From a virus, in IMG/VR virus record IMGVR_UViG_3300035698_033253: DNA of 36,816 bases; one strand, given 5' to 3'. Made by a program: the position numbers and the translations under genes. Every line of letters begins with the position of its first letter. The stretch's first letter is position 1. Below are positions 4,656 to 28,408 of this stretch, piece after piece. The notes beneath the pieces were generated by a model, which worked only from the letters and a program-made list of their open reading frames with translations, ran no database searches and was not told the origin of the DNA.

Positions 4656-5246
4656 ATGTCATTAATTTCAGCAGAAATTCCTGTTGTTGGTTTGCCTTTT
4701 CGTATTGCACAAGAAATTACATATGAGCAAGAATCCGTGGAAGAAAATCTTTCATTGGTTAAAATGGTTGTGTGTAGTGAATTTCCATCTAATATTCCAA
4801 TAGAAGATACTGAAGAATATGCTGATGGTTGTATTGGTTTGGTTCGAGCTTGTGAAAAATATGATTTCAGGGGTAAATTTTCCACCTTTGCTATTCCGCT
4901 AATTCGTCATGCTATAATTGAGGAAAAACGGAAACAAGGTTGTCGAAGAAAAACACAACTTAAAATTGAGCAATTGGGATATGATGATTGTAAAATAGAA
5001 GCACATTATAAAAACCCAACAGTGACGTTGGAGCAAATTAGATTGATGTTGGCTCCAAATCCTAGTGATACTTTAACGAATAAGAGAGATAAAAAGGCGG
5101 TGTATTTGCATTTTTTGGATCAAAAAAATTATGCCGAAATTGGAAGAAAAATGCGTCTTACTCGTGAAGCTGTGCGTCAAGCAGTAGAACGTGGGATTAG
5201 ATCATTAAGGACAAAATATTTAAAAGAGTTAGAGAATAATGGCTGA
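4656..5246 (+). CDS. sigma-70 family RNA polymerase sigma factor (regions 2 and 4)
   Basis: Region 2-like DGCIGLVRACEKYDFRGKFSTFAIPLIRHAIIE and region 4 HTH YLHFLDQKNYAEIGRKMRLTREAVRQAVERGIRSLR. Stop overlaps the next start (ATGGCTGA). Confidence 0.75.
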   Translation: MSLISAEIPVVGLPFRIAQEITYEQESVEENLSLVKMVVCSEFPSNIPIEDTEEYADGCIGLVRACEKYDFRGKFSTFAIPLIRHAIIEEKRKQGCRRKTQLKIEQLGYDDCKIEAHYKNPTVTLEQIRLMLAPNPSDTLTNKRDKKAVYLHFLDQKNYAEIGRKMRLTREAVRQAVERGIRSLRTKYLKELENNG

Positions 5247-6223: not shown

Positions 6224-7318
6224 ATGTCTGAAAAGAAAAAAGTGCGTCCTGTATTGGCAATTCCGATTTATGTGTTGGTTGAGGACGATGCGTTGGTGCT
6301 TCCGACAGCTACGTTGGAGTACTGTAAGCCGAGCGAATTGCCTAAAGAAGGCAATTTCTATGTCCTGACCAGAGAAGGTCTTCAGGTCAATAAGGACACA
6401 AAGATCATTAAGGCTTTGTCGCCCGTCAAGGAAATTCCAGTTTTGGCTAGTTTTGCTGCTGCTGCCAAGCTGCGACTTCCAAAGATTCCGTCGCTTATTT
6501 TGGCGAGGGCTTGGAATTTTTTCGCTCAAATCTACAAGGAACATCACAGCGAGAGTGAGTTGATGATCCTATACAATTCGGACGAACGGTTGTATGATTT
6601 GTGGTGTCCCAAACAAGAGGTGTCGTTTGGTGGTGTAGAGTATGAGATGAGCGAGGAGTTGGCTGCCACTCCCAAAGAATGGAAAAATGTTGGAACCATT
6701 CATAGTCATGCTGATTTCGGTGCTTATCATAGTTCTACCGATGTTCATGACGAGAAGGATTCGGATGGACTCCATATTACGGTTGGACACGTTAACCAAA
6801 ATTGCTGTTCTCTAAGTTGTTCTGTGGCTATCGGTGGCGAGCGTTGGAAACTACCGCCAGAAAACATCTTGCTTGGGATCTCTCGTGGAGAGGGAGAAAA
6901 GAAGCAGTATTTGGTGAATGTTAAAAACCAAAACGAATACTTCTCCGTAGATTTATCTCCCGAAGAGCAGGTTCTTATGGACGGCGCATGTGCCGACCAA
7001 ATCGAAAACGATTGGTTCCCGCGTGTCGAAAAGAAAACCTATGGTTACCAACAAGGCAACTATAGTAGTGGCGGATATATGGGTTACCAAACTACTTGGA
7101 CTCGCGAAGAGGATGCAGACTTTCCAGAGGAAGAGGAAGCTGGAGAGTGGGTGTTGAAGATGGGATCGTGGGTATTTGTTGCTGACGAAGATGCCGAGAT
7201 TGCCGATGTTCCCGAGATTGCCGATGTTCCCGAGATTGCCGATGGCAAACTCATGCAACAAACAGATGACGAAGACAAGCGTAGCGATGATATCGCCAAA
7301 GCTGGAGGCAATGAATAA
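6224..7318 (+). CDS. JAB/MPN+ (JAMM) metalloprotease domain protein with acidic repeat C-terminus
   Basis: Canonical JAMM motif HxHx7Sx2D (IHSHADFGAYHSSTD) with upstream Glu (EYEMSEE). C-terminal AEIADVPEIADVPEIADGK tandem repeats. ATG with AGAGAGAGAA leader. Confidence 0.85.
   Translation: MSEKKKVRPVLAIPIYVLVEDDALVLPTATLEYCKPSELPKEGNFYVLTREGLQVNKDTKIIKALSPVKEIPVLASFAAAAKLRLPKIPSLILARAWNFFAQIYKEHHSESELMILYNSDERLYDLWCPKQEVSFGGVEYEMSEELAATPKEWKNVGTIHSHADFGAYHSSTDVHDEKDSDGLHITVGHVNQNCCSLSCSVAIGGERWKLPPENILLGISRGEGEKKQYLVNVKNQNEYFSVDLSPEEQVLMDGACADQIENDWFPRVEKKTYGYQQGNYSSGGYMGYQTTWTREEDADFPEEEEAGEWVLKMGSWVFVADEDAEIADVPEIADVPEIADGKLMQQTDDEDKRSDDIAKAGGNE
7196..7245 (+). repeat. 18-bp in-frame tandem repeat x2.8 (GAGATTGCCGATGTTCCC) in the JAB gene C-terminus
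   Basis: Encodes EIADVP-EIADVP-EIADG. Confidence 0.9.
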
Positions 7319-7320
7319 AA

Positions 7321-8064
7321 ATGGAGATTCCCCAAAAATTACGGGTGAAGGTGATTGGAGCGGGTGGTATTGGCGGTTGTTTGTTGGGAGTGCTTTGTCA
7401 ACTTCTTAATTATGGTTCGTCATTGTATAGTTTCGACGACGTTGATGTCGGACTTATTGATGGTGACGAATACGAAGAAAGAAATCGAGATCGTCAAAAC
7501 TTTTCTGAGCGAGGTAATAAGTCGGAGGTTACTATAAGGGGTTTGCAAGAAAGTTATCCCAACCTTTTTTTCAAATCTCATCCGACTTATATCACCGAAG
7601 AAAATGCGGGAATGCTAATTAATGATGGTGACGTGGTTTTTCTTTGTGTGGACAACCACAAAACCAGAAAATTGGTGTCTCGATATTGCGAGGACAATTT
7701 ACAAAACGTTGTTCTCTTGAGTGGTGGAAACGACCTGACAGACGGAAATGTTCAGGTATTCATTCGAAAAGATGGATGGAACCAAACCCTTCCACTTGAT
7801 AGCGTTTATCACCCGGAAATTAACGATCCCCAGGACGAACATCCTGATGAGGTCGAGGTAAGAGAGGGTTGTTTGGAACAAGCTGCAAGCACTCCACAAC
7901 TGCTCGTTGCCAACAATATGGCCGCCGCCGCAATGTTGAATTCATTCCACGGGTGGTTAACTGGCGTGTTCGATGGACCGTTCAGATACGATGAAGCGTT
8001 CTTCGATCTGGGCACTAACAAAGTACGACCTGTAAGTCGAGAAAAGAAAATAAGGAGTAAGTAA
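7321..8064 (+). CDS. E1-like (ThiF/MoeB/UBA family) activating enzyme
   Basis: Rossmann nucleotide loop VKVIGAGGIGG followed by DGDEYEERNRDRQ (equivalent of the D-x-D...N-R-Q adenylation motif). Starts 2 nt after the JAB stop with a GGAGG leader. Confidence 0.8.
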   Translation: MEIPQKLRVKVIGAGGIGGCLLGVLCQLLNYGSSLYSFDDVDVGLIDGDEYEERNRDRQNFSERGNKSEVTIRGLQESYPNLFFKSHPTYITEENAGMLINDGDVVFLCVDNHKTRKLVSRYCEDNLQNVVLLSGGNDLTDGNVQVFIRKDGWNQTLPLDSVYHPEINDPQDEHPDEVEVREGCLEQAASTPQLLVANNMAAAAMLNSFHGWLTGVFDGPFRYDEAFFDLGTNKVRPVSREKKIRSK

Positions 8065-20269: not shown

Positions 20270-20605
20270 ATGGCAGAAGACCAACCATTTCCATCTGAAG
20301 TGCTTGTCTCTGCACCTTGATCGCCGCCACCCAACCCACGACCATTCATCTTATCACCATGAATTTCTTAGGATAAATAGCCACATGCATACCAACCACT
20401 ATCGTAATGAACCCCTCTAAACATCCGAACTCCGTACCATCACTGGGCGGCTCATATCTTTTTTCGGGCTTGAACTGTTGCTTGTTCTTATTGCTGGTTG
20501 GAGCCGTTGTATGGTTTGTGGCTTCATGCTGGATGGCTTGTTTTTGAATTGGCAAAAAAGTAGTGAACCTTTTGGCGTTCTCTTACGTCTATAAAAATAC
20601 ATGAC

Positions 20606-20678
20606 GCGGGATGGAGCAGTCTGGCAGCTCGCAAGGCTCATAACCTTGAGGCCGGGGGTTCAAATCCCTCTCCCGCCA
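20606..20678 (+). tRNA. tRNA-Met/Ile2 (anticodon CAT)
   Basis: Acceptor GCGGGAT/ATCCCGC, anticodon loop CTCATAA, T-arm GGGGGTTCAAATCCCTC, encoded CCA. Confidence 0.8.
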
Positions 20679-20868
20679 CTTAAAAGTTTGTTTGTAAGGA
20701 ATTAAAAATGTTGTTACTTTGCAATAAGAATGTCCAGTCCTTGTGGCATAATAAATGCCAACAAGGAACCTGCGCTCCTACCACGATTTGTGGTAATGGA
20801 ACAAAGGATCGGACTCTCTGAGCAAAGATCAAAAATGCTCAGGGAAACCTGGGCCAAGGAAATAAGAA

Positions 20869-20899
20869 CCCTTCCCAGGTCACTGGGAAGGGTTTTTTT
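20869..20899 (+). terminator. rho-independent terminator
   Basis: CCCTTCCCA-GGTCAC-TGGGAAGGG followed by TTTTTTT; ends 7 nt before the radical-SAM ATG. Confidence 0.75.
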
Positions 20900-20905
20900 G
20901 TTGGA

Positions 20906-21880
20906 ATGACAATGAAATTAGAAAAAATTGGATTTTACACGCTGTCGGACAAACGTGCTGCACAAACTTGTAGCACGTCTCCTATGTGGCGTTGTGAAAT
21001 GATTGTAACCAATCGTTGTAATTTCAAGTGTCCATATTGTCGTGGATTGTTAGTGCTGAGTAGAGATTGTGAATCAGATATAGATTTTACAATGGCTTGT
21101 GATACATTAGATTTGTGGACAAAAGATAGATTAAAGAATATTCGTTTTAGCGGTGGTGAGCCAACTCTTTATCCACGTTTGTTGGATTTAGTAAAAAGAT
21201 GTAAGCAAGGTGGCGTAGAACGTATTGCGATCTCTAGTAATGGTTCTATGGATTTTAGAGTATATGAACAATTGATTGAAAATGGAGTAAATGATTTTTC
21301 CATTTCATTAGATGCTTGTTGCGCTACGTTTGGAGATCAAATGACAGGCACAACAGGTCAGTGGGAAAAGGTGGTTGAGAATATCAGAAGAATCTCTGCT
21401 CTTACTTATGTTACGGTGGGCGTGGTGCTGACAAAAGATAATGTAGATGATACTAAAAATATCGTAAGGTTTGCACATGAATTGGGAGTTGCTGATATTA
21501 GAATTATATCTGCTGCTCAATTCAATCAGTTGGTAAGTGGGCTAGAGGATATAGACGAATACATACTGGATGCACATCCCATTCTTAAATATCGAGTGCA
21601 TCATTTTAAAGAAGGTAGGAATGTAAGAGGAATTGAAGATTATGATACGCATAAATGCCATTTAGTAAAAGATGATAGTGTAGTGGCGGGGAAATGGCAT
21701 TTTCCATGTGTTATTCATATGCGAGAAGGTGGAGAACCTATCGGAGAAGTTAACTCTGATATGAGAAAAAATAGAATAAATTGGTTCGATCAACATGATA
21801 CACATGTTGATCCCATCTGTCGCCAAAATTGTTTGGATGTGTGTATAGATTATAATAATAAATGTGAAGTTGATCTTTGA
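20906..21880 (+). CDS. radical SAM enzyme (viperin/MoaA-like core)
   Basis: CNFKCPYC (C-x3-C-x2-C with aromatic residues). NIRFSGGEPTLYP glycine-rich SAM motif. ISSNGS and ISLDA motifs in the order typical of viperin/MoaA-type partial TIM barrels. Confidence 0.8.
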   Translation: MTMKLEKIGFYTLSDKRAAQTCSTSPMWRCEMIVTNRCNFKCPYCRGLLVLSRDCESDIDFTMACDTLDLWTKDRLKNIRFSGGEPTLYPRLLDLVKRCKQGGVERIAISSNGSMDFRVYEQLIENGVNDFSISLDACCATFGDQMTGTTGQWEKVVENIRRISALTYVTVGVVLTKDNVDDTKNIVRFAHELGVADIRIISAAQFNQLVSGLEDIDEYILDAHPILKYRVHHFKEGRNVRGIEDYDTHKCHLVKDDSVVAGKWHFPCVIHMREGGEPIGEVNSDMRKNRINWFDQHDTHVDPICRQNCLDVCIDYNNKCEVDL

Positions 21881-21897
21881 AAATTTGGAATTTATAT

Positions 21898-21970
21898 TGC
21901 GGTGGATCGCCATTGGTAGGGGAGCGTGTCTGTTAAACACGTCGTTGGAGGTTCGAATCCTCCTGCCGCA
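21898..21970 (+). tRNA. tRNA-Asn (GTT), irregular D-arm
   Basis: Acceptor pairs with two GU wobbles, anticodon stem CGTGT/ACACG with loop CTGTTAA, canonical T-arm GGAGGTTCGAATCCTCC. The D-stem does not pair canonically. Confidence 0.55.
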
Positions 21971-21976
21971 GCTTAT

Positions 21977-22054
21977 AGGTGGGGTGCTGCTGGGACAGCG
22001 ACGGGTCTCCAAAACCCGTGCGAAAGCTATGGGATTCGATTTCTCCCCCGCCTG
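21977..22054 (+). tRNA. tRNA-like, anticodon CCA (Trp) by fold; irregular T-stem, 78 nt
   Basis: Acceptor AGGTGGG/CCCGCCT, D-stem GCTG/CAGC, anticodon stem ACGGGT/ACCCGT with loop CTCCAAA; T-loop TTCGATT with only a 3-4 bp stem. Confidence 0.4.
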
Positions 22055-22059
22055 CTTAT

Positions 22060-22134
22060 TGCCGGGTAGATTGTGTTGGCACAATCGTGTGGCTCTGAAC
22101 CACAAATCCGTACGTTCGATTCGTACCCCGGCAG
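22060..22134 (+). tRNA. tRNA-Gln (CTG)
   Basis: U1-A72 acceptor TGCCGGG/CCCGGCA, D-stem GATT/AATC, anticodon stem TGTGG/CCACA with loop CTCTGAA, T-arm GTACGTTCGATTCGTAC. Confidence 0.75.
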
Positions 22135-22198
22135 CTTGGGATGGGTGATTAATTTTGCCTAAAAGGTTAGTCACTGGACCTCGGGCGACAGTGACATT

Positions 22199-22269
22199 GG
22201 TCCATAGGTGTTCCGGCAGCACACATCCTTGGTAAGGATGAAGATCGAGTTCAATTCTCGGATGGACCT
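22199..22269 (+). tRNA. tRNA-Thr (GGT)
   Basis: Acceptor GGTCCAT/ATGGACC, anticodon stem CATCC/GGATG with loop TTGGTAA, T-arm TCGAGTTCAATTCTCGG. Confidence 0.6.
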
Positions 22270-22342
22270 CTAGAAAAAGTTACTTCCTACTACTAAAAGT
22301 ACTAATGTGGTTCAACATATTTATGGAGCAATTGAGGAATAC

Positions 22343-22415
22343 TGGAGCATAGTGTAGTGGTTCTGCATATTTGGCTGATATCCAAAAGGTATAGGTTCGA
22401 TTCCTATTGCTCCGA
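22343..22415 (+). tRNA. tRNA-Ile (GAT)
   Basis: Acceptor TGGAGCA/TGCTCCG, anticodon stem TTTGG/CCAAA with loop CTGATAT, T-arm ATAGGTTCGATTCCTAT; D-stem imperfect. Confidence 0.6.
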
Positions 22416-22445
22416 CTTTACAAAAGAAGAAAAATAGGATATAAT

Positions 22446-22521
22446 AGCCGAGGGTCCGGTGTTGGTACTGGAGGGTGCCTTTGAAGCATCTTTGTCGCAC
22501 GTTCGATTCGTGCCTCGGCTG
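22446..22521 (+). tRNA. tRNA-Gln (TTG)
   Basis: Acceptor AGCCGAG/CTCGGCT, D-stem TCCG/TGGA, anticodon stem GGTGC/GCATC with loop CTTTGAA, T-arm GCACGTTCGATTCGTGC. Confidence 0.75.
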
Positions 22522-22525
22522 CTTT

Positions 22526-22597
22526 GGCTCGTTAGCAATCTAGTGATGCCGCACGCTGTTAACGTGCTCTAGCTGGGAGCGTAACCCAGGCGAGCCT
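22526..22597 (+). tRNA. tRNA-Asn(GTT)-like with aberrant T-loop (possible pseudo-tRNA)
   Basis: Cloverleaf proportions are good (acceptor GGCTCGT/GCGAGCC, anticodon stem GCACG/CGTGC, loop CTGTTAA, 72 nt), but the T-loop is AGCGTAA and lacks the conserved GTTC. Confidence 0.4.
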
Positions 22598-22639
22598 CTT
22601 TGTTTGAAAATTAAAATCATAACATAATGGAGTCCTTAT

Positions 22640-22990
22640 ATGATTTTTGCTTTTTGCACTTTGGGAGATATGAATTGCGGAGAAGTTAAGGAAGAGTTCC
22701 GTGAAGACAAATTTGTTTCATTACTTGTTTATGTTCACGAAGGGAAAAAGGTAATTCCTTATTTTTCCAGCGAAAAAGTATGTAAAGATTTTTGTCGTCG
22801 TAATCTTCCAAAAAAATGGTTAAGCGGATCAGTTAGTCTTGAAGAAGAAGAGTTGTCTAAAGTAGCGGCAGATCATAACATAGATGCTAAGATGTTTGAT
22901 TGGCCACGAAATATTAAAAAATTTGTAGAATGGGATATTGTAATCCACGAGTTGATAGAAGAACCAGATATTATATCTAAAAAAGTCTAG
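22640..22990 (+). CDS. hypothetical protein (116 aa) inside the tRNA array
   Basis: ATG ORF between tRNA genes with GGAG leader. Confidence 0.45.
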   Translation: MIFAFCTLGDMNCGEVKEEFREDKFVSLLVYVHEGKKVIPYFSSEKVCKDFCRRNLPKKWLSGSVSLEEEELSKVAADHNIDAKMFDWPRNIKKFVEWDIVIHELIEEPDIISKKV

Positions 22991-23038
22991 GAGAATATGA
23001 TGAATTTACGATTGAAACGCACGGCACCGACAATTTTT

Positions 23039-23113
23039 GGTGTCGTAGCAAACGTTGGCATTGCAACAGGCTTTTACCCTGTCTAAACGCTGGTTCGATT
23101 CCAGTCGGCATCA
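23039..23113 (+). tRNA. tRNA-Lys (TTT), copy 1
   Basis: Acceptor GGTGTCG/CGGCATC (two GU), anticodon stem ACAGG/CCTGT with loop CTTTTAC, T-arm GCTGGTTCGATTCCAGT. Confidence 0.6.
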
Positions 23114-23122
23114 CTTGAGCAT

Positions 23123-23196
23123 GATCTCGTAGCTCAATTGGTTAGAGCAACGGACTTTTAATCCGTAGGTTGTGGATTCGAGTTCCACCGGGATCA
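23123..23196 (+). tRNA. tRNA-Lys (TTT), copy 2
   Basis: Canonical: acceptor GATCTCG/CGGGATC, D-arm GCTCAATTGGTTAGAGC, anticodon stem ACGGA/TCCGT with loop CTTTTAA, T-arm GTGGATTCGAGTTCCAC. Confidence 0.85.
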
Positions 23197-23199
23197 CTA

Positions 23200-23496
23200 A
23201 TGGAAAGACTGAAATATATTTTTGACCACTGGAAACTAGGAGTTCATCTTATTCTTAGGACAAAGAGATTTGGGGTGAACAATGGTTGGTGGTTTGGGTC
23301 AGATTCAGTTTTGGGAGTTTCAACGATACAAATTATATGGGATGCAATTAGGATTTACCCCATAGTGAAGAATTATGAAATGATGAAGTTCAGAGCGACA
23401 AAAGTGTTTTTTTTAAGCACTGAAACATGTGCTATGCTCTGGCCAAGGGAATACAATGTACGAAATTACAATCAAAGGAGTAACCAGACAGTTTGA
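23200..23496 (+). CDS. hypothetical protein (start moved to the first ATG downstream of the tRNA)
   Basis: ORF track start at 23170 lies inside the tRNA at 23123-23196; the first ATG after the tRNA is at 23200 (MERLKYIF...). Confidence 0.3.
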   Translation: MERLKYIFDHWKLGVHLILRTKRFGVNNGWWFGSDSVLGVSTIQIIWDAIRIYPIVKNYEMMKFRATKVFFLSTETCAMLWPREYNVRNYNQRSNQTV

Positions 23497-23590
23497 GAGT
23501 GCGGCTAAAATGGCTGAATGGCAAGAGTCGATGCTTGCCATGCCTCGCAAGTTCAAAAAAGAAAAGAAAACTAAAACAAAAATTACAAAA

Positions 23591-23663
23591 GCCCCTTTAA
23601 CTCAGCGGCTAGAGTTCCTGGCTTTTAACCAGGGGGTCGAAGGTTCAAATCCTTCAAGGGGCA
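23591..23663 (+). tRNA. tRNA-Lys (TTT), copy 3
   Basis: Acceptor GCCCCTT/AAGGGGC, anticodon stem CCTGG/CCAGG with loop CTTTTAA, T-arm GAAGGTTCAAATCCTTC. Confidence 0.8.
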
Positions 23664-23675
23664 CTTAAATTAGGA

Positions 23676-23984
23676 TTGGTTATGAAATGTTGTAAAACAG
23701 CAAGAGAGCATAAATATCAAGGTGTTCGTCCACCACATTGTGATGGTGGTAAAGGATGTGATACTTGTCGTGAAATATTTCAAGATGTATGTTTACATCC
23801 TGTTGATTTTTTGCAACTTGAAGAAGGCGTACAATTTACACTCGTTTGCACGCGTTGTAGAGCCGATGTTACGGAACATTTGAGCAATTTTTTTACTATG
23901 CAGAAGTTGTTAGAACTGGATCGAAGAGTTAAAACTCTTGAAGACGAGTTGGGGGCAAGGGAGCCAAATTATTTTGGAGACTAG
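23676..23984 (+). CDS. Cys-rich hypothetical protein (102 aa)
   Basis: MVMKCCKTAREH...CDGGKGCDTC...C..C cysteine pairs. Confidence 0.4.
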   Translation: MVMKCCKTAREHKYQGVRPPHCDGGKGCDTCREIFQDVCLHPVDFLQLEEGVQFTLVCTRCRADVTEHLSNFFTMQKLLELDRRVKTLEDELGAREPNYFGD

Positions 23985-23996
23985 GATAAATAAATA

Positions 23997-24383
23997 ATGG
24001 GTTGTTGTCTTATTGGAAGTAGTAGTTCGTATGATGATGGTGGCGGGGATTCTTGCGTTAGCGCAAGTGGTGGCGGGGATTCTTGCGTTAGCGCAAGTGG
24101 TGGCGGGGATAGACCTCAGAATCCAGACCCAAAAAACTTTAGAATAGAGAACAGTTCTCAGGTGGGTCAGTGGTTAATTGTTATTGTAGAATATCCTAAT
24201 TGCACTAATTACGAGGGTTTAAAAATTTTGGTTTACGAGGACACAACTTTGGAGCAGCTTGAACAGCAAGGGCATATTGATCCTCATTTTGCGAAGAACA
24301 AGCGTTGGCGTACGCCGTTTGCGCGATTTGAGCCGACCATAAAGGGTTGGGATGCTGCTTATCGGTTTTGTAGAGGAAAATAA
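23997..24383 (+). CDS. hypothetical protein with N-terminal MGCC and GGGDSCVSAS tandem repeats
   Basis: A 30-bp in-frame tandem repeat encodes GGGDSCVSAS x2.5; AATAATGGG start context. Confidence 0.4.
   Translation: MGCCLIGSSSSYDDGGGDSCVSASGGGDSCVSASGGGDRPQNPDPKNFRIENSSQVGQWLIVIVEYPNCTNYEGLKILVYEDTTLEQLEQQGHIDPHFAKNKRWRTPFARFEPTIKGWDAAYRFCRGK
24039..24112 (+). repeat. 30-bp in-frame tandem repeat x2.5 (GGTGGCGGGGATTCTTGCGTTAGCGCAAGT)
   Basis: Perfect copies; encodes GGGDSCVSAS. Confidence 0.9.
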
Positions 24384-24389
24384 TTTTTA

Positions 24390-24462
24390 GCGGGTGAAGC
24401 TCAAGTGGACGAGTCCCAGATTTCCAATCTGGTTGCTGCCGGTTCGAGGCCGGTCACCCGCA
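24390..24462 (+). tRNA. tRNA-Gly (TCC)
   Basis: Acceptor GCGGGTG/CACCCGC, anticodon stem CCAGA/TCTGG with loop TTTCCAA, T-arm GCCGGTTCGAGGCCGGT. Confidence 0.8.
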
Positions 24463-24467
24463 CTTAC

Positions 24468-24553
24468 GCTGCCGTGCTCCGAATTGGCTAAGGAACCGGA
24501 TTTGTAATCCGGCGAGGGAAACCTCATTGTGGGTCCGAGTCCCACCGGCAGCC
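24468..24553 (+). tRNA. class-II-shaped tRNA (86 nt, long variable arm) with anticodon TGT (Thr) by standard fold
   Basis: Perfect acceptor GCTGCCG/CGGCAGC, anticodon stem CCGGA/TCCGG with loop TTTGTAA, variable arm hairpin GAGG-GAAA-CCTC, T-arm GTGGGTCCGAGTCCCAC. Identity is ambiguous. Confidence 0.6.
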
Positions 24554-24624
24554 CTGTAAAAAAATTACTTGAGTTTTCGAGTAAACTAAGCAGCACTTAC
24601 TCATATATACTTTAGGAGGTATAT

Positions 24625-25215
24625 ATGAGTAAATTAAGTCGAAGCGAAGCGGGTCGTTTAGGAGCCGAGAGAACTAAAGAAGTTTGGCGAGAAAGATATA
24701 GAAAGAATCCAAGTTTTTGCTATCATTGTAATAAGCAACTTCCTTATGAAAAAAGGAAGAATAAGTTTTGTAACCATTCTTGTTCTGCTTCTTATAATAA
24801 TTCTGTCGTGAACAGACGGAAAACCCCCAAGAGATATTGTTTTTATTGTTCGGGGGAGGTTAAGGGAAATGCTGTTAAATATTGTTCTATTTCTTGTTAT
24901 TTAAAACATTGTTGGGAAACGAGAAAGAAAATAATAGTTGAATCAGGGATGGTTAAGTCGCCTCGTATAGCCAAACGATATCTAACAGAGGAAAGGGGGC
25001 ATAGGTGTGAAAAATGTGGAATCACTGAATGGAATGGCGAAAAATTGGTAATGGTTTTGGATCATATAGATGGTAATTCGGATAATTGGAATCTTGATAA
25101 TTTAAGGTTACTTTGTTCAAATTGCGATTCGCAATTACCAACATATAAAAATCGTAATAAGGGCAATGGGCGTTATTGCCGCCGACAACGATACAAAAAA
25201 GGTAAAAGTTACTAA
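24625..25215 (+). CDS. HNH endonuclease (homing-endonuclease-like) embedded in the tRNA array
   Basis: AGGAGG leader. N-terminal Cys-rich Zn-binding region. HNH motif CEKCG...LDHIDGNSDNWNLDNLRLLCSNCD. Confidence 0.8.
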   Translation: MSKLSRSEAGRLGAERTKEVWRERYRKNPSFCYHCNKQLPYEKRKNKFCNHSCSASYNNSVVNRRKTPKRYCFYCSGEVKGNAVKYCSISCYLKHCWETRKKIIVESGMVKSPRIAKRYLTEERGHRCEKCGITEWNGEKLVMVLDHIDGNSDNWNLDNLRLLCSNCDSQLPTYKNRNKGNGRYCRRQRYKKGKSY

Positions 25216-25341
25216 ACCGATGGGTGTAAAATATCCAATTACTGCCCCGAACCGCAAATTTTGTAGTGATGGCACACCAAATCCGAATTACCGACCTGAA
25301 AGCAAACCGACATATCCGCCTGCACCACCCAAAAAGAAATC

Positions 25342-25887
25342 ATGACTTATAAATTAATTTTAGTTGAGACTGATGATTATTATGATCCTTACGATTACGA
25401 AGATGGTGGACATCCAGATCCACAACTAATAGTTCAAGAAGGAACTCTTAGTTCTATTTTGGCGGCAAAGAATTCGGAGTTGGCAACTGATTTTGGACAT
25501 GCTTTGAAGAAGTTGTTAGATGATAAGGATGAAAAAACAGTACAGGTATTAAAAAGTGCTGGTTGGGTAAATAAGGATACAGCTACCGCTCAGGAGAAGT
25601 TAGTTTTAAATAGGAAGTTTTGGTATGTTAGTCGTAATGGCGTTGTTGATTTTGACATAGATAATATGCCGACTAACACGATCCGTAATTTAGTCAATGA
25701 TGACACTAAAATCGGACAGGTTATTTCAAAGGCTTCTTTAAAGAAGTTGATGACTGAAGAACAGAGGGAAATATACGACAAAGAGAAAAAGAGATTGAAG
25801 ACCGCAGAAAAAATAGGGCTGCTACCAGAAAGAAGCGATTGTACGACCTTAAGAAGAAGCAGTTGGAAGAAGCCAGGAAAGTATTAA
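25342..25887 (+). CDS. hypothetical protein (181 aa), acidic N-terminus
   Basis: ATG ORF; no recognisable motifs. Confidence 0.5.
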   Translation: MTYKLILVETDDYYDPYDYEDGGHPDPQLIVQEGTLSSILAAKNSELATDFGHALKKLLDDKDEKTVQVLKSAGWVNKDTATAQEKLVLNRKFWYVSRNGVVDFDIDNMPTNTIRNLVNDDTKIGQVISKASLKKLMTEEQREIYDKEKKRLKTAEKIGLLPERSDCTTLRRSSWKKPGKY

Positions 25888-26094
25888 AAAAGGCTGGAGA
25901 ACTTTAATGGCAGTTGTTGCTCTTGTTGTTCTTGTTGCTTTTGTTGCTGTGGGATATGTGGCGATCTCAAGTTGGGGAAGAGATTCGGGTGAGGGAAAAG
26001 ATAGACACGTAACACCACCATGGAAAATTTAATGGAAAATTTAATGGGATATTCAACTGGTTTCCTTTAGTAAATTTTACTTAAGGAGACAAAA

Positions 26095-26289
26095 ATGTCG
26101 TATTTCAGTAATTGTTATCGTCGTCCCCACACTACACAGGAACGACGGGCTAACCAAGGTTGTAGTGATTTGTGGCGCACCAGAAGGAATAAGGCTAACT
26201 TGGTAGAAGCATGGGACGATCAACCTCGGTCTAACCAAAGACAAAGAAGTTGGAAGGATTATAGGAAAACGCAGTATAAGGGTTGGTAA
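26095..26289 (+). CDS. small basic hypothetical protein (64 aa)
   Basis: AGGAGACAAAAATG leader; Arg/Lys-rich. Confidence 0.3.
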   Translation: MSYFSNCYRRPHTTQERRANQGCSDLWRTRRNKANLVEAWDDQPRSNQRQRSWKDYRKTQYKGW

Positions 26290-26290
26290 G

Positions 26291-26494
26291 ATGAAACCAT
26301 ACGGAATGAACAGAATGCAGAGTGGCGATGATGATGTCGCTGGCTGTAAGTTTCATGGACGAGCTACCGGCGTCTATGCGTTGAATGGACGTAGCTACCG
26401 CAGCCTCCGAAATGGAAAGAAGGATAATTGTCGTCGCTGGATTAAGCGACAAGCAAGGAGTGAAGGAAAGAAACAGTGTAATGATTGTGGGTGA
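26291..26494 (+). CDS. small Cys-containing basic protein (67 aa); overlaps the alternative ORF 26385-26660
   Basis: C...C...C..C spacing; only one of the two overlapping frames is likely real. Confidence 0.25.
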   Translation: MKPYGMNRMQSGDDDVAGCKFHGRATGVYALNGRSYRSLRNGKKDNCRRWIKRQARSEGKKQCNDCG

Positions 26495-26660
26495 TAAAGT
26501 AAGATGTATTTCAGAAGACAACTTGTCTCATCGAGAAGGGATTATAATCGAGATAAGACAAGGGTTGGCTGAATTATTTATTGTTCGCTTTAGTGGTGTA
26601 ATTTACGAACAGTCATTCATATTTCATCGGCATGAATTGGAAAAAATAAGGAATAAATAA
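26385..26660 (+). CDS. small hypothetical protein (91 aa), alternative to the ORF at 26291-26494
   Basis: Overlapping frame; undecidable from sequence alone. Confidence 0.25.
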   Translation: MDVATAASEMERRIIVVAGLSDKQGVKERNSVMIVGDKVRCISEDNLSHREGIIIEIRQGLAELFIVRFSGVIYEQSFIFHRHELEKIRNK

Positions 26661-26982
26661 ATGGATATTCACAAAATGTCGATTGCGGAAATTGAGACAG
26701 TTTTACGGAAGAAAAAAGAGGAATCCGCACCAATGGTGCAAAGGATGGCGCAAAGTACGATTTCAAAAAAGGACGGTAAGGCTCCAAACAAACAATTTCC
26801 ATACTCGCAATGTAAAGTCTGCACGGAGATGTAACGGAGCAGCTCAATAAGAAACGGCACTGGAACTTAATCTTCATGGTTGGGGAGTCTGTTTGCAAAA
26901 CAGATAGTAAGCAGATCGTAACTGCCCGGTGCCTCTGAAACTTAGTGTCAAATTTTAGAAAACTTCCTCTATGTAAAAGTTC

Positions 26983-27054
26983 GCGGACGTAACTCAGTGG
27001 TAGAGTGCTTGCTTGCCAAGCAAGTTGTCGTGGGTTCAATTCCCATCGTTCGCA
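26983..27054 (+). tRNA. tRNA-Gly (GCC)
   Basis: Acceptor GCGGACG/CGTTCGC, D-arm with AGTGGTAG, anticodon stem CTTGC/GCAAG with loop TTGCCAA, T-arm TGGGTTCAATTCCCA. Confidence 0.85.
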
Positions 27055-27056
27055 CT

Positions 27057-27143
27057 GTGTATGAGCCGAATAGTGGTTTGTCGGGCCTGGCTGTGAACCA
27101 GGAGGTCATTGAGATCATGCGGGTTCGATCCCCGTCATACACC
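27057..27143 (+). tRNA. tRNA-His (GTG) with an unusual 16-nt variable arm; 87 nt, C73, -1 is T
   Basis: Acceptor GTGTATG/CATACAC, D-stem CCGA/TCGG, anticodon stem CCTGG/CCAGG with loop CTGTGAA, variable hairpin GGTC-ATTGA-GATC, T-arm GCGGGTTCGATCCCCGT. Confidence 0.65.
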
Positions 27144-27153
27144 TAATATAATT

Positions 27154-27384
27154 ATGAAAACATCCGATCCTAATCGTTATCGAAATAAGAAACACTATGT
27201 GTCCGATATATGTGTCACAAGATTTCTTACTAAAGAAACAATGGAGACATTAACTACAGAGAGATTATTGGCATATCGTGATTCATTGCTTAAGAGGTGG
27301 GATGACATAAAGGATATGAAATTGTGGAATGAAACTTATCGAGATGTCAAAGATGTTTTAAATAAAAGAGAGCATATTAAATAA
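27154..27384 (+). CDS. hypothetical small protein (start moved to the first ATG after tRNA-His)
   Basis: ORF track start at 27109 is inside the tRNA at 27057-27143; ATG at 27154 gives MKTSDPNRY... Confidence 0.35.
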   Translation: MKTSDPNRYRNKKHYVSDICVTRFLTKETMETLTTERLLAYRDSLLKRWDDIKDMKLWNETYRDVKDVLNKREHIK

Positions 27385-27469
27385 TCCTGTAGCGAAATGG
27401 CATCGCGTGTTAGTGGATATTGGGTCATACCTTCCAGACAAGACGTAGGTTCGATTCCTACCAGGATTA
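27383..27469 (+). tRNA. tRNA-like element (87 nt), anticodon arm not foldable; possible pseudo-tRNA
   Basis: Perfect acceptor AATCCTG/CAGGATT, D-stem GCGA/TCGC and canonical T-arm GTAGGTTCGATTCCTAC, but no 5-bp/7-nt/5-bp anticodon arm in the 37 nt between. Confidence 0.35.
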
Positions 27470-27473
27470 CAAT

Positions 27474-27545
27474 GCTACTATAGTGTAATGGCAGCACGCA
27501 AATTTCGTAATTTTGCAGAGTCGGGTTCGATTCCCACATGTAGCT
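27474..27545 (+). tRNA. tRNA-like (72 nt), weak acceptor and T-stems; anticodon loop contains CGT
   Basis: D-arm GTG-TAATGGCAG-CAC and T-loop GGGTTCGATTCCC are present; acceptor has only 5 bp, anticodon stem has a U-U closing mismatch. Confidence 0.3.
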
Positions 27546-27564
27546 CTAATACATCGACAAAAAA

Positions 27565-28130
27565 TGGGAATTAAAATGGATTGGCTGTTTCCACTAAAGA
27601 TGAATAAATTGGGAGCAACTGTTGACTCAATGTCTTTTCAGAATATCGACATTACTTCAGAAGTTGAGATTCCTATTGAATCACATGTTGGGGCTTTTGG
27701 TGCTGAGCGCCGACATGATGTGCATAAAGGAGTCGATCTTTATTGTCCCGAAGGTACAGAAGTTTTTGCAGTAGAAGATGGGATATTGTGTCAGGTCAGA
27801 CCATTCACCGGAGAGGCTGTTAATCAACCTTGGTGGAATGACACCTGGGCTGTGTCTGTTGCGGGGGAAAGTGGTATTGTTGTATATGGTGAAATAGATG
27901 ATGTCGGCATATATGAAAAGACTGGCAAACGACTAATCGAGGTGCGGCGAGGTGATTTGATTGGGTGTGTAATGAGAGTATTAAAAAAAGATAAAGGACG
28001 CCCTACTTCCATGCTACATTTAGTTCTTCACAAACATGGAGTTCTTAGTAATGGTGTGTGGGAGATTGGAAAACCACAACCTGATGGTTTATTAGATCCG
28101 ACTCAGTTTTTATTGGAAAGTGAGACATGA
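27565..28130 (+). CDS. M23-family (LytM-like) metallopeptidase
   Basis: HDVHKGVDLYCPEGTEVFAVEDGIL (HxxxD zinc motif and Gly-rich strand) and downstream HLVLHKHG (second His motif). Start moved to the ATG after the tRNA-like gene; the ORF track start at 27513 lies inside the tRNA. Confidence 0.75.
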
Positions 28131-28328
28131 CTTTATACAGATGGGCATATACAAGTCAGTGTTGGTTTGCTCGTTGGTGGACAGGCTCCTAAGCCGCTTG
28201 TACAGCATCAGTATTTGATTGATGAAGCGGAGTTTGATATGCGTTTGGGTATTGATCCGACACCAATTTATGAAGCAGTTTATGAGAAATTAAAGCGAAT
28301 TTGATTGTGGTTGTCTCGAAGGTTTGAT

Positions 28329-28401
28329 TGGCCGGTAGCGTAATGGTTAACGCACAAGACTTTGAATCTTGGGATTGTAGGTTCGAGTCCTACTCGGCCA
28401 T
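28329..28401 (+). tRNA. tRNA-Gln (TTG), second copy
   Basis: U1-A72 acceptor TGGCCGG/TCGGCCA, D-arm GCGTAATGGTTAACGC, anticodon stem CAAGA/TCTTG with loop CTTTGAA, T-arm GTAGGTTCGAGTCCTAC; followed by a terminator. Confidence 0.8.
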
Positions 28402-28408
28402 CTAAAAA

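Follow-up and report, generated by a model that had tools for sequence, protein, structure and literature searches.

The IMG/VR virus record IMGVR_UViG_3300035698_033253 (36,816 nt, analysed at its full length and called "the window" below) contains a large array of tRNA genes, two of which combine the class-I anticodons UGU (Thr) and GUG (His) with a length of 86-87 nt and a stem-loop variable arm. We consider it fairly probable that these two genes encode working, cognately charged tRNAs that belong to recurrent phage families and are built on a class-II-like body, i.e., a Ser-type D arm combined with a stem-loop variable arm. Both fold into regular cloverleaves, both belong to families of phage tRNAs with covarying helices, and the identity nucleotides of both agree with their anticodons. 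From these features we infer that the long tRNA-Thr would be charged by threonyl-tRNA synthetase (ThrRS) and read ACA and ACG codons, that the long tRNA-His would be charged by histidyl-tRNA synthetase (HisRS) and read CAU and CAC, and that both would be used in translation. The two genes are new members of a kind of phage tRNA that recurs across arrays and is known but under-described.

Structure of the two long-arm tRNA genes

24468..24553, + strand: long-arm tRNA-Thr(UGU), 86 nt (ARAGORN; Rfam 45.6 bits, E=9e-7; homologue in T5)
27057..27143, + strand: long-arm tRNA-His(GUG), 87 nt (ARAGORN; Rfam 41.1 bits, E=2e-5; long-arm His relatives)

ARAGORN run with structures called both genes with the anticodons UGU and GUG, and when either gene is folded without constraints, the minimum-energy structure is a cloverleaf with five arms. 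The original prediction had raised the possibility that an anticodon stem was mis-positioned, which is not the case: ARAGORN, Rfam, and unconstrained folds all give the stems as first drawn. The long Thr gene has the anticodon loop UUUGUAA, the variable arm GAGG-GAAA-CCUC (4-bp stem, 16-nt region), the T-loop UCCGAGU, and a class-II type D arm in which a 3-bp stem closes an 11-nt loop (GAAUUGGCUAA), while its acceptor stem reads GCUGCCG...C73 with G1-C72 and C2-G71. The long His gene has the anticodon loop CUGUGAA, the variable arm GGUC-AUUGA-GAUC (again a 4-bp stem in a 16-nt region), and a 4-bp D-stem with an 11-nt loop (AUAGUGGUUUG) in a D arm that aligns with those of tRNA-Ser(GCU/GGA); its acceptor stem is GUGUAUG/CAUACAC, followed by C73 and preceded by U at position -1. 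Its acceptor/T branch forms 12 perfect pairs either as 8/4 (A8-U65) or as 7/5 (G49:U65), and A8 and U65 are invariant among close relatives, with no covariation that would favour either form.

Two recurrent families of long-arm phage tRNAs

Genes similar to the long tRNA-Thr are carried by L016 and L020, two viral loci with homologues of the window's M23 peptidase. An IMG/VR scan seeded on the acceptor and D arm of these two loci matched 30 loci with 12 distinct long tRNAs, 11 of which have the anticodon UGU. Blastn of one of the IMG/VR variants returned 96 records, the majority of them Escherichia or Salmonella phages; a tRNA-Thr is annotated in most of the matches listed, and the two records that we examined are Tequintavirus. 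Both of these phages, T5_ev212 and Lindwurm, have the gene annotated as a tRNA-Thr of 87 nt including CCA with the variable arm GGA-GUAA-UCC, and it is the sole tRNA-Thr of Lindwurm.

An alignment of 14 sequences (the window gene, the two T5-like phages, and eleven IMG/VR variants) has standard pairs in 97.4% of pair cells, with two-sided changes at 18 of 22 pairs. Compensatory changes occur in all five helices, including the extra arm, where 3/3 pairs vary on both strands and pairing holds in 95% of cells. Such values are attained by 0/500 shuffles, and pairing drops to 29-48% in slid controls. G1-C72 and C2-G71, by which E. coli ThrRS identifies the acceptor stem, are invariant (14/14), and UGU is found in 13 of the 14 sequences; the window gene has all three. 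Viral scans with two anticodon-arm seeds found ordinary short tRNA-Thr and tRNA-His with the same anticodon arm, a viral scan for a Ser-like body with UGU gave a single false match (L013), and a metagenome scan for the Thr variable and T arm pattern gave no match.

The long tRNA-His likewise has relatives. Among 172 distinct tRNAs of the earlier loci, just five combine a GUG start with a CAC-C end, and all five, the window gene included, are tRNA-His(GUG). In 154 viral loci chosen for unrelated reasons, 7 of 24 distinct tRNA-His(GUG) have a hairpin variable arm (82-90 nt), and those of L141 and L162 are of the window's subtype with A8, D arm, and T arm in common. Aligning the window gene with six of these seven (n=7) showed changes on both sides at 14 of 21 pairs, a score that 0/500 shuffles reach; G49:U65 is kept in 6/7, including tRNAs with U8. 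The nearest bodies to the long tRNA-His are those of tRNA-Ser(GCU) and tRNA-Ser(GGA) of the closest related phages L010 and L011 (73-77% core identity), with which it shares A8, the D arm, the T arm, and U65. Blastn of the long His gene alone against cultured phages gave no match, and a metagenome scan for its D arm and anticodon gave four matches, i.e., three non-tRNA sequences and one identical copy of the window (L060).

As a side observation, the tRNA-His of L008, L009, and L162 have an acceptor stem interrupted midway by two or three U:U mismatches (positions 4-6 vs 67-69) with the GUG...CAC-C end kept; the window gene is fully paired at these positions.

Charging and function of the long tRNA-Thr and tRNA-His

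Several observations weigh against working, cognately charged tRNAs. The window tRNA-Thr has C73 where its family has U73 (IMG/VR members) or A73 (T5), and position 55 of its T-loop is C, whereas U at this position is nearly universal in tRNAs. E. coli-type HisRS relies on a G-1:C73 pair, which is precluded by U at position -1 of the long tRNA-His; of the hallmarks of a bacterial-type tRNA-His, this gene thus has GUG and C73 without the G-1:C73 pair. G at position -1 is encoded by 5 of 6 long relatives, while the tRNA-His of T5-like phages and of L001 likewise have U there. Seryl-tRNA synthetase (SerRS) recognises its tRNAs by the long arm, whatever their anticodon, and some serylation is therefore possible. 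The sole other copy of this array segment (L060) is identical and so gives no measure of selection on the exact genes. Finally, the authors of a study on the PARIS defence system, whose nuclease AriB cleaves host tRNAs, allow that T5 tRNAs might rescue cells by competing for the nuclease rather than by decoding (PMC12409363).

The last point leads to an alternative that we consider unlikely, namely, that the long genes encode tRNA-shaped RNAs outside decoding that act as regulators or as decoys or competitive inhibitors of host defence enzymes that cleave or modify tRNAs. Besides the competition raised for T5, such a role would find parallels in irregular tRNAs of soil bacteria, some of which are charged yet unused in translation according to Mukai et al. 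2017 (PMC5389517), and in the array element at 27383, which keeps acceptor, D, and T arms without a usable anticodon loop. However, both long genes have canonical anticodon loops (U33, purine 37) with an anticodon that is conserved across both families, and they keep the identity nucleotides of the cognate synthetases, which a pure decoy would not need.

It is highly unlikely, in our view, that the genes are Ser-type tRNAs with a changed anticodon that are charged by SerRS and insert Ser at Thr or His codons. The close Ser(GCU/GGA) bodies of the His gene fit this idea, and the variable arm of the Thr gene (CGAGGGAAACCUC) resembles that of a tRNA-Ser(UGA) of L011 (CGAGCGAAAGCC). There are also precedents for such mischarging, since Ser is inserted in E. 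coli by allo-tRNAs whose anticodons are not those of Ser (PMC5389517) and nev-tRNAs are charged with Leu (PMC3333845). Yet both genes lack the GGAGG or GGAAG start with G73 that is kept by every tRNA-Ser of L010, L011, and L012 and show Thr- and His-specific ends instead. The identity elements that the original prediction had called odd thus agree with the anticodons. Furthermore, the long tRNA-Thr is the sole tRNA of the window for ACA, and mischarging would be costly because this codon makes up 30% of Thr codons, while the T5 homologue helps growth of E. coli without harm (PMC12409363).

We give very little credence to decaying duplicates of tRNA-Ser, tRNA-Tyr, or tRNA-Leu with anticodons that drifted by point mutation: UGU is one substitution from UGA (Ser) and GUG one from GUA (Tyr), the array has degenerate-looking members (four mismatches in 27474, the anticodon arm of 27383, and the T-loop of 22526), and one family member, the L067 sequence of the L016/L067 phage, has a 6-nt anticodon loop, but all stems are fully paired in both window genes, their acceptor stems are rewritten on both strands unlike under drift, compensatory changes affect all helices tested in both families with the anticodon conserved, and the long tRNA-Thr shares the N73-C-U flank of canonical members. 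Features of tRNA pseudogenes are accordingly absent from the two genes, with stems paired, loops canonical except for C55 in the Thr gene, and scores above threshold. Decoy, mimicry, and decay, all of which had been proposed originally, are therefore not favoured for the long genes, given the compensatory changes in both families.

On the reading of cognately charged Thr and His tRNAs, the genes would probably have arisen by duplication of an array tRNA and a subsequent change of identity in which acceptor end and anticodon were rewritten and the body was retained. Their role would be to provide decoding capacity during infection for an AT-rich genome.

Long variable arms in phage tRNA arrays

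The original prediction had stated that long variable arms are normally restricted to Ser, Leu, Tyr, and Sec tRNAs, a rule that a review still gives with nematode nev-tRNAs as the exception (PMC4033280). This rule fails for phages, as is evident from tRNA-Thr and tRNA-Asn of T5-like phages, tRNA-Lys of phage phiCbK, and tRNA-Trp(CCA) across IMG/VR. Among 108 distinct tRNAs of M23-anchored loci, around 11 carry a class-I anticodon at a length of at least 83 nt (four Lys, two Thr, and one each for Asn, Gln, Glu, Val, and Trp), and such long tRNAs often adjoin a tRNA of normal length for the same amino acid. The T5-like tRNA-Asn(GUU) has the variable arm GUC-GAAA-GAC, and two tRNA-Lys of 88 and 91 nt are annotated in RefSeq for phiCbK, with the anticodons CUU and UUU according to ARAGORN.

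The tRNA-Trp(CCA) family is widespread. A pattern consisting of the Trp(CCA) anticodon arm followed by a distant T-loop matched at least 120 IMG/VR loci, and the first 80 of these gave 73 tRNA-Trp(CCA) calls, 60 of them distinct and almost all 78-92 nt long. A hairpin of at least 3 bp, often closed by GAAA, is present in 40/60, and G73 in 52/60. With one genome per bacterial species, the same pattern mostly hit non-tRNA DNA, and long tRNA-Trp were found at 4 of 80 loci, each within an array of 4-12 tRNAs on a contig of a metagenome-assembled genome. This long Trp type is thus rare in bacterial genomes. Stem length of the variable arm was rejected as a feature for telling such tRNAs from those for Ser, Leu, and Tyr, since both mostly have 3-5 bp.

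Phage tRNAs of class I with a long arm have hardly been covered in the literature that we searched, where we found no paper on this pattern besides that of Mukai et al. The long-arm rule therefore needs a caveat for phage tRNAs, all the more as the model phage T5 has two such tRNAs, and annotation pipelines may mark these genes as mistyped or as pseudogenes. Their existence also raises the question of how SerRS is avoided and how ThrRS, HisRS, the lysyl- and tryptophanyl-tRNA synthetases tolerate the extra arm, and they are possible natural scaffolds for orthogonal tRNAs. As a separate observation, a tRNA-Leu(UAA) of Lindwurm (L094, 10781-10857) is annotated at just 77 nt and would be the reverse case of a class-II amino acid on a short-arm tRNA.

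A possible link to tRNA-cleaving defences

The AriB nuclease of PARIS cleaves the tRNAs for Lys (UUU), Thr (UGU), and Asn (GUU) of E. coli, and the T5 versions of all three rescue cells (PMC12409363). Specifically, E. coli exposed to PARIS toxicity grows again when T5 tRNA-Thr(UGU) and T5 tRNA-Lys are expressed together; the extra arm goes unmentioned in that paper (PMC12409363). The cut in tRNA-Lys(UUU) lies between positions 40 and 41, and AriB has a modelled contact to the D-loop. The window holds the same anticodons with three tRNA-Lys(UUU), the long tRNA-Thr(UGU), and two tRNA-Asn(GUU). Of the three PARIS targets, Thr and Asn are long-armed in T5. T5 tRNA-Thr keeps the sequence of the AriB site (U36AAUCA41) and departs from a standard tRNA mainly in the arm and the D-loop, and a variable arm emerges at positions 44-48, just beyond the cut.

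The long tRNAs might therefore have the additional role of providing copies that host tRNA-cleaving nucleases handle poorly, with the arm standing beside the 3' strand of the anticodon stem, though such shielding is speculative. On a broader scale, a stem-loop arm on class-I tRNAs (Trp, Thr, Lys, His, Asn, Gln, and Glu) could be a general phage-specific design that was selected for evading tRNA-cleaving defences, with cognate charging kept and SerRS avoided, an idea that we put forward tentatively and with considerable doubt. In any case, the comparison of long arms with PARIS targets is a testable link to defence.

Composition of the array

Apart from the two long genes and the elements listed in the next section, the array comprises the following tRNA genes:

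20605..20678, + strand: tRNA-Met(CAU), 1:72 unpaired (initiator-like) (ARAGORN; Rfam 59.7 bits)
21898..21971, + strand: tRNA-Asn(GUU), weak D-stem (ARAGORN; Rfam 39.5 bits)
22060..22134, + strand: tRNA-Gln(CUG), D arm able to form 7 bp, UUGG loop
22199..22269, + strand: tRNA-Thr(GGU) (ARAGORN; Rfam 45.5 bits)
22343..22415, + strand: tRNA-Ile(GAU) (ARAGORN; Rfam 61.1 bits)
22446..22521, + strand: tRNA-Gln(UUG), 76 nt, long D-stem with UUGG loop, branch 7/5 or 8/4 (ARAGORN; fold)
23039..23113, + strand: tRNA-Lys(UUU), copy 1 (ARAGORN; Rfam 49.0 bits)
23123..23196, + strand: tRNA-Lys(UUU), copy 2 (Rfam 74.8 bits)
23591..23663, + strand: tRNA-Lys(UUU), copy 3 (Rfam 70.8 bits)
24390..24462, + strand: tRNA-Gly(UCC) (Rfam 50.8 bits)
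26983..27054, + strand: tRNA-Gly(GCC) (Rfam 72.2 bits)
28329..28401, + strand: tRNA-Gln(UUG), canonical (Rfam 69.5 bits)
36314..36385, + strand: tRNA-Gly(CCC), outlying array member (ARAGORN; Rfam 54.3 bits)

In total, the window has 20 tRNA-like genes, all on the + strand, with 19 at 20605-28402 plus the one at 36314. ARAGORN called 17 tRNAs on the + strand (16 at 20605-28402 plus the outlying tRNA-Gly), and Rfam RF00005 called 15 at the gathering threshold, including 27383-27469. A custom scan for a perfectly paired 12-bp acceptor/T branch recovered nearly all genes found by ARAGORN and Rfam and added 26856-26934. The tRNA-Gln(CUG) gene is missed by ARAGORN and by Rfam in gathering mode and appears with laxer Rfam filters (22061-22132, 36.6 bits); it has a perfect 7/5 branch, and its minimum-energy fold is a cloverleaf (z=-3.4). 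ARAGORN and Rfam bear out the original inventory as well as the class-II length given for the Thr and His genes, including the three tRNA-Lys(UUU), the two tRNA-Gln(UUG) with tRNA-Gln(CUG), and tRNA-Gly with UCC, GCC, and CCC, while the count rises from about 19 to 20 and the array start shifts from 20606 to 20605.

Irregular members of the array and the gene at 21977

21977..22054, + strand: tRNA-Trp(CCA), 78 nt (ARAGORN; long-arm phage Trp family)
22526..22597, + strand: Asn(GUU)-like tRNA, stems perfect, odd T-loop (ARAGORN only)
26856..26934, + strand: tRNA-like gene, Cys-like (custom branch scan; unlisted by the original prediction, ARAGORN, and Rfam)
27383..27469, + strand: tRNA-like element, acceptor, D, and T arms intact (Rfam 49.6 bits)
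27474..27545, + strand: tRNA-Thr(CGU) (ARAGORN; Rfam 35.7 bits; absent from the perfect-branch scan)

The elements at 21977, 22526, 27383, and 27474 had originally been described as broken in their anticodon or T-loops and as possible pseudo-tRNAs, which holds for the T-loop of 22526 and the anticodon region of 27383. The gene at 21977 is no pseudo-tRNA but one of the long-arm tRNA-Trp(CCA) that are widespread in phages. Its loops are intact (CUCCAAA and UUCGAUU), and it looks odd because its branch pairs perfectly solely as 8/4, not as 7/5; it further has an 11-nt variable region (GC-GAAA-GC+UAU), A1-U72, and G73. A reading of 21977 and 22446 as tRNA-Sec was rejected, since Rfam RF01852 gives 38.6 bits (21976-22054) and 30.8 bits (22445-22521) vs a cutoff of 47 and the anticodons are CCA and UUG, not UCA.

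The loops of 27474 are normal as well, and this gene is irregular at the acceptor/T junction instead, with two mismatches in the acceptor stem and two in the T-stem; it may be decaying. The gene at 22526 has a non-canonical T-loop AGCGUAA, a D-loop without GG, and no Rfam match at E<=10, and its function is doubtful. The element at 27383 has 38 nt between D and T arms vs around 22 nt expected for an anticodon arm and variable loop, with a 27-nt stretch replacing 11 in the Rfam alignment. ARAGORN calls it only with introns allowed, as Met(CAU) with a 10-nt intron, and constrained folding yielded neither an anticodon hairpin nor an intron model that was convincing. Three elements (27383, 27474, and 22526) therefore look irregular or decaying and show part of the features of tRNA pseudogenes.

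The gene at 26856 has an 8-bp acceptor stem, a 4-bp T-stem, a 6-bp anticodon stem, the anticodon GCA, and U73, and folds into a perfect cloverleaf (z=-4.3). Its T-loop AUCGUAA keeps U55 and C56, with the usual U54/A58 swapped to A54/U58, and a similar T-loop is found in the L016/L067 phage. This gene may be an irregular tRNA-Cys.

Inserts in anticodon loops also occur in related phages. A tRNA-Phe of L011 (7715-7810) has a 22-nt hairpin insert in its anticodon loop and is otherwise near-identical to tRNA-Phe of L010 and L012 without insert, and a tRNA-Asn of L011 (11788-11912) and a tRNA-Arg of L012 (6899-7022) share a near-identical insert core (uugcacgaNgccgaaaggcucauaguuacc). Group I introns were rejected as an explanation for the L011 and L012 inserts, which are too short. 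The 27383 element may be a related case.

Array evolution, flanks, and codon use

24625..25215, + strand: HNH endonuclease open reading frame (ORF) inside the array (PHROG HNH families, E=4e-20)

The tRNA-Lys(UUU) at 23123-23196 is 86% identical over 65 nt (blastn) to a tRNA-His(GUG) of L001 (7254-7330), with differences mainly in the acceptor stem and anticodon loop, and tRNA genes therefore switch identity within these arrays. The identity between the long tRNA-Lys(CUU) of phiCbK and the 3' half of the window tRNA-Thr (see below) likewise points to bodies being reused. The HNH ORF starts 70 nt 3' of the long Thr gene, and Lindwurm also has an HNH gene between tRNA genes. In the T4/T6 tRNA region, a homing endonuclease is reported to drive amplification of anti-defence tRNA loci (PMC13096335). 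We further noted a 30-nt unit (GGTGGCGGGGATTCTTGCGTTAGCGCAAGT) in around 2.4 tandem copies (24038-24110, + strand) inside ORF 23997-24383 just 5' of tRNA-Gly(UCC) and the long Thr gene; the product of this small ORF thereby begins with repeats of GGGDSCVSAS.

None of the array members encodes CCA. Instead, the discriminator is followed by C in 19/20 and by CU in 18/20, including the long Thr gene and most irregular members, with the long His gene as the exception to the C (discriminator C, then U). The same single C is found in the related loci L001-L020, while CCA is encoded in L031, L033, T5, and phiCbK. This C may be a common 3'-processing signal, and the common flank argues that most array members are maintained and processed alike.

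Codon use (9,080 codons) partly fits the set of tRNAs. No codon is more frequent than AAA (5.6%), Gln is encoded by CAA in 72% of cases, and GC content at third codon positions is 0.31, in agreement with the original view that multicopy tRNA-Lys(UUU) and tRNA-Gln(UUG) suit an AT-rich codon bias. Although GAA and GAT are just as frequent, tRNAs for Glu and Asp are absent from the window, which holds only part of the array. The proposed connection to a sulfur-carrier system of ubiquitin-like (Ubl) and E1 proteins is unsupported: the sole NCBIfam match of the JAB-domain ORF (see below) is PRTRC system protein A at 33 bits vs a cutoff of 101.8, and a scan of around 25 larger ORFs of the window gave no match to a tRNA thiolase.

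Genomic context of the array

4656-5246, + strand: sigma-70-family factor, upstream of the array
6224-7318, + strand: JAB-domain ORF, directly 5' of the ThiF-family E1 ORF
7321-8064, + strand: ThiF-family E1 ORF, directly 3' of the JAB ORF
9265-10503, + strand: S-adenosylmethionine (SAM) synthetase, full-length, upstream of the array
12665-15238, + strand: 857-aa ORF, with matches to a vault repeat and to the shoulder domain of the major vault protein (E=5e-23)
20906-21880: radical SAM enzyme ORF with generic and MoaA-like matches far under cutoffs

The window also encodes an NAD-dependent DNA ligase, an M23 peptidase, and a family-2 glycosyltransferase, among other products. Its genes are packed densely on one strand with Shine-Dalgarno-like sequences and terminators formed by a stem-loop plus T-run, while promoter-like sites show no excess (18 found vs 19.8 expected in shuffled background). 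A major vault protein shoulder domain is unusual for a phage gene. The radical SAM ORF could not be linked to tRNA modification, as its matches are generic or MoaA-like.

The IMG/VR contigs that carry homologues of the M23 peptidase measure 6.5-578 kb, the majority >85 kb, and we found no close cultured phage, with blastn of the whole array against cultured phages matching single tRNAs only; we therefore view the window as a piece of a large uncultured phage genome. An exact-protein look-up of array ORF 22640-22990 for closer relatives gave no match. L060 (JGI contig Ga0075116_10055827, 1,621 bp) is an identical copy of window ~26856-27143, i.e., of 26856, tRNA-Gly(GCC), and the long tRNA-His, and the same phage thus occurs in that metagenome.

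Comparison with known systems

The closest known counterpart of the long Thr gene is the tRNA-Thr(UGU) of T5-like phages (Tequintavirus; LR597659.1 30133-30219 and OK143207.1 77406-77492), which aligns and covaries with it. Both share UGU, G1-C72, C2-G71, the anticodon arm CCNGA-UUUGUAA-UCNGG, a variable arm of 3-4 bp with a GNRA tetraloop, and a length of around 84-86 nt before CCA, and both lie in tRNA regions with small ORFs and an HNH endonuclease. They differ in that the T5-like gene encodes CCA after A73 whereas the window gene has C73 followed by C-U without CCA, in the T-loop (UUCGAAU vs UCCGAGU), and in the acceptor stem, where the sequences diverge from position 4 on. The long tRNA-Lys(CUU) and tRNA-Lys(UUU) of Caulobacter phage phiCbK (NC_019405.1 50139-50323) likewise combine a class-II-like body, a hairpin variable arm, and a class-I anticodon. 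The former matches the window tRNA-Thr at 88% identity over positions 38-79 of the latter (3' strand of the anticodon stem, variable arm, and T arm), but anticodon and acceptor stem are different, CCA is encoded, and position 73 is U.

For the long tRNA-His, Mukai et al. 2017 (PMC5389517) report that alphaproteobacterial phages have tRNA clusters in which (8/4) tRNA-His and (8/4) tRNA-Ser occur together. These are resembled by the window gene in its His anticodon in a phage tRNA cluster, a 12-bp branch that can be drawn as 8/4, the lack of G-1, and a body that it shares with the A8/U65 tRNA-Ser of related phages. By their published description, the (8/4) tRNA-His have A73 or U73 rather than C73, and a 7/5 branch with G49:U65 is equally possible in the window gene.

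More distantly, the allo-tRNAs described in the same paper (PMC5389517) and the nev-tRNAs of nematodes (Hamashima et al. 2012, PMC3333845) also combine a long arm with a class-I anticodon, and the 8/4 or 9/3 branch and long D-stem of allo-tRNAs are features found in 21977, 22446, and 26856 of the window as well. However, allo- and nev-tRNAs keep a Ser or Leu identity and are charged against their anticodon, while the ends of the window genes match their anticodons instead.

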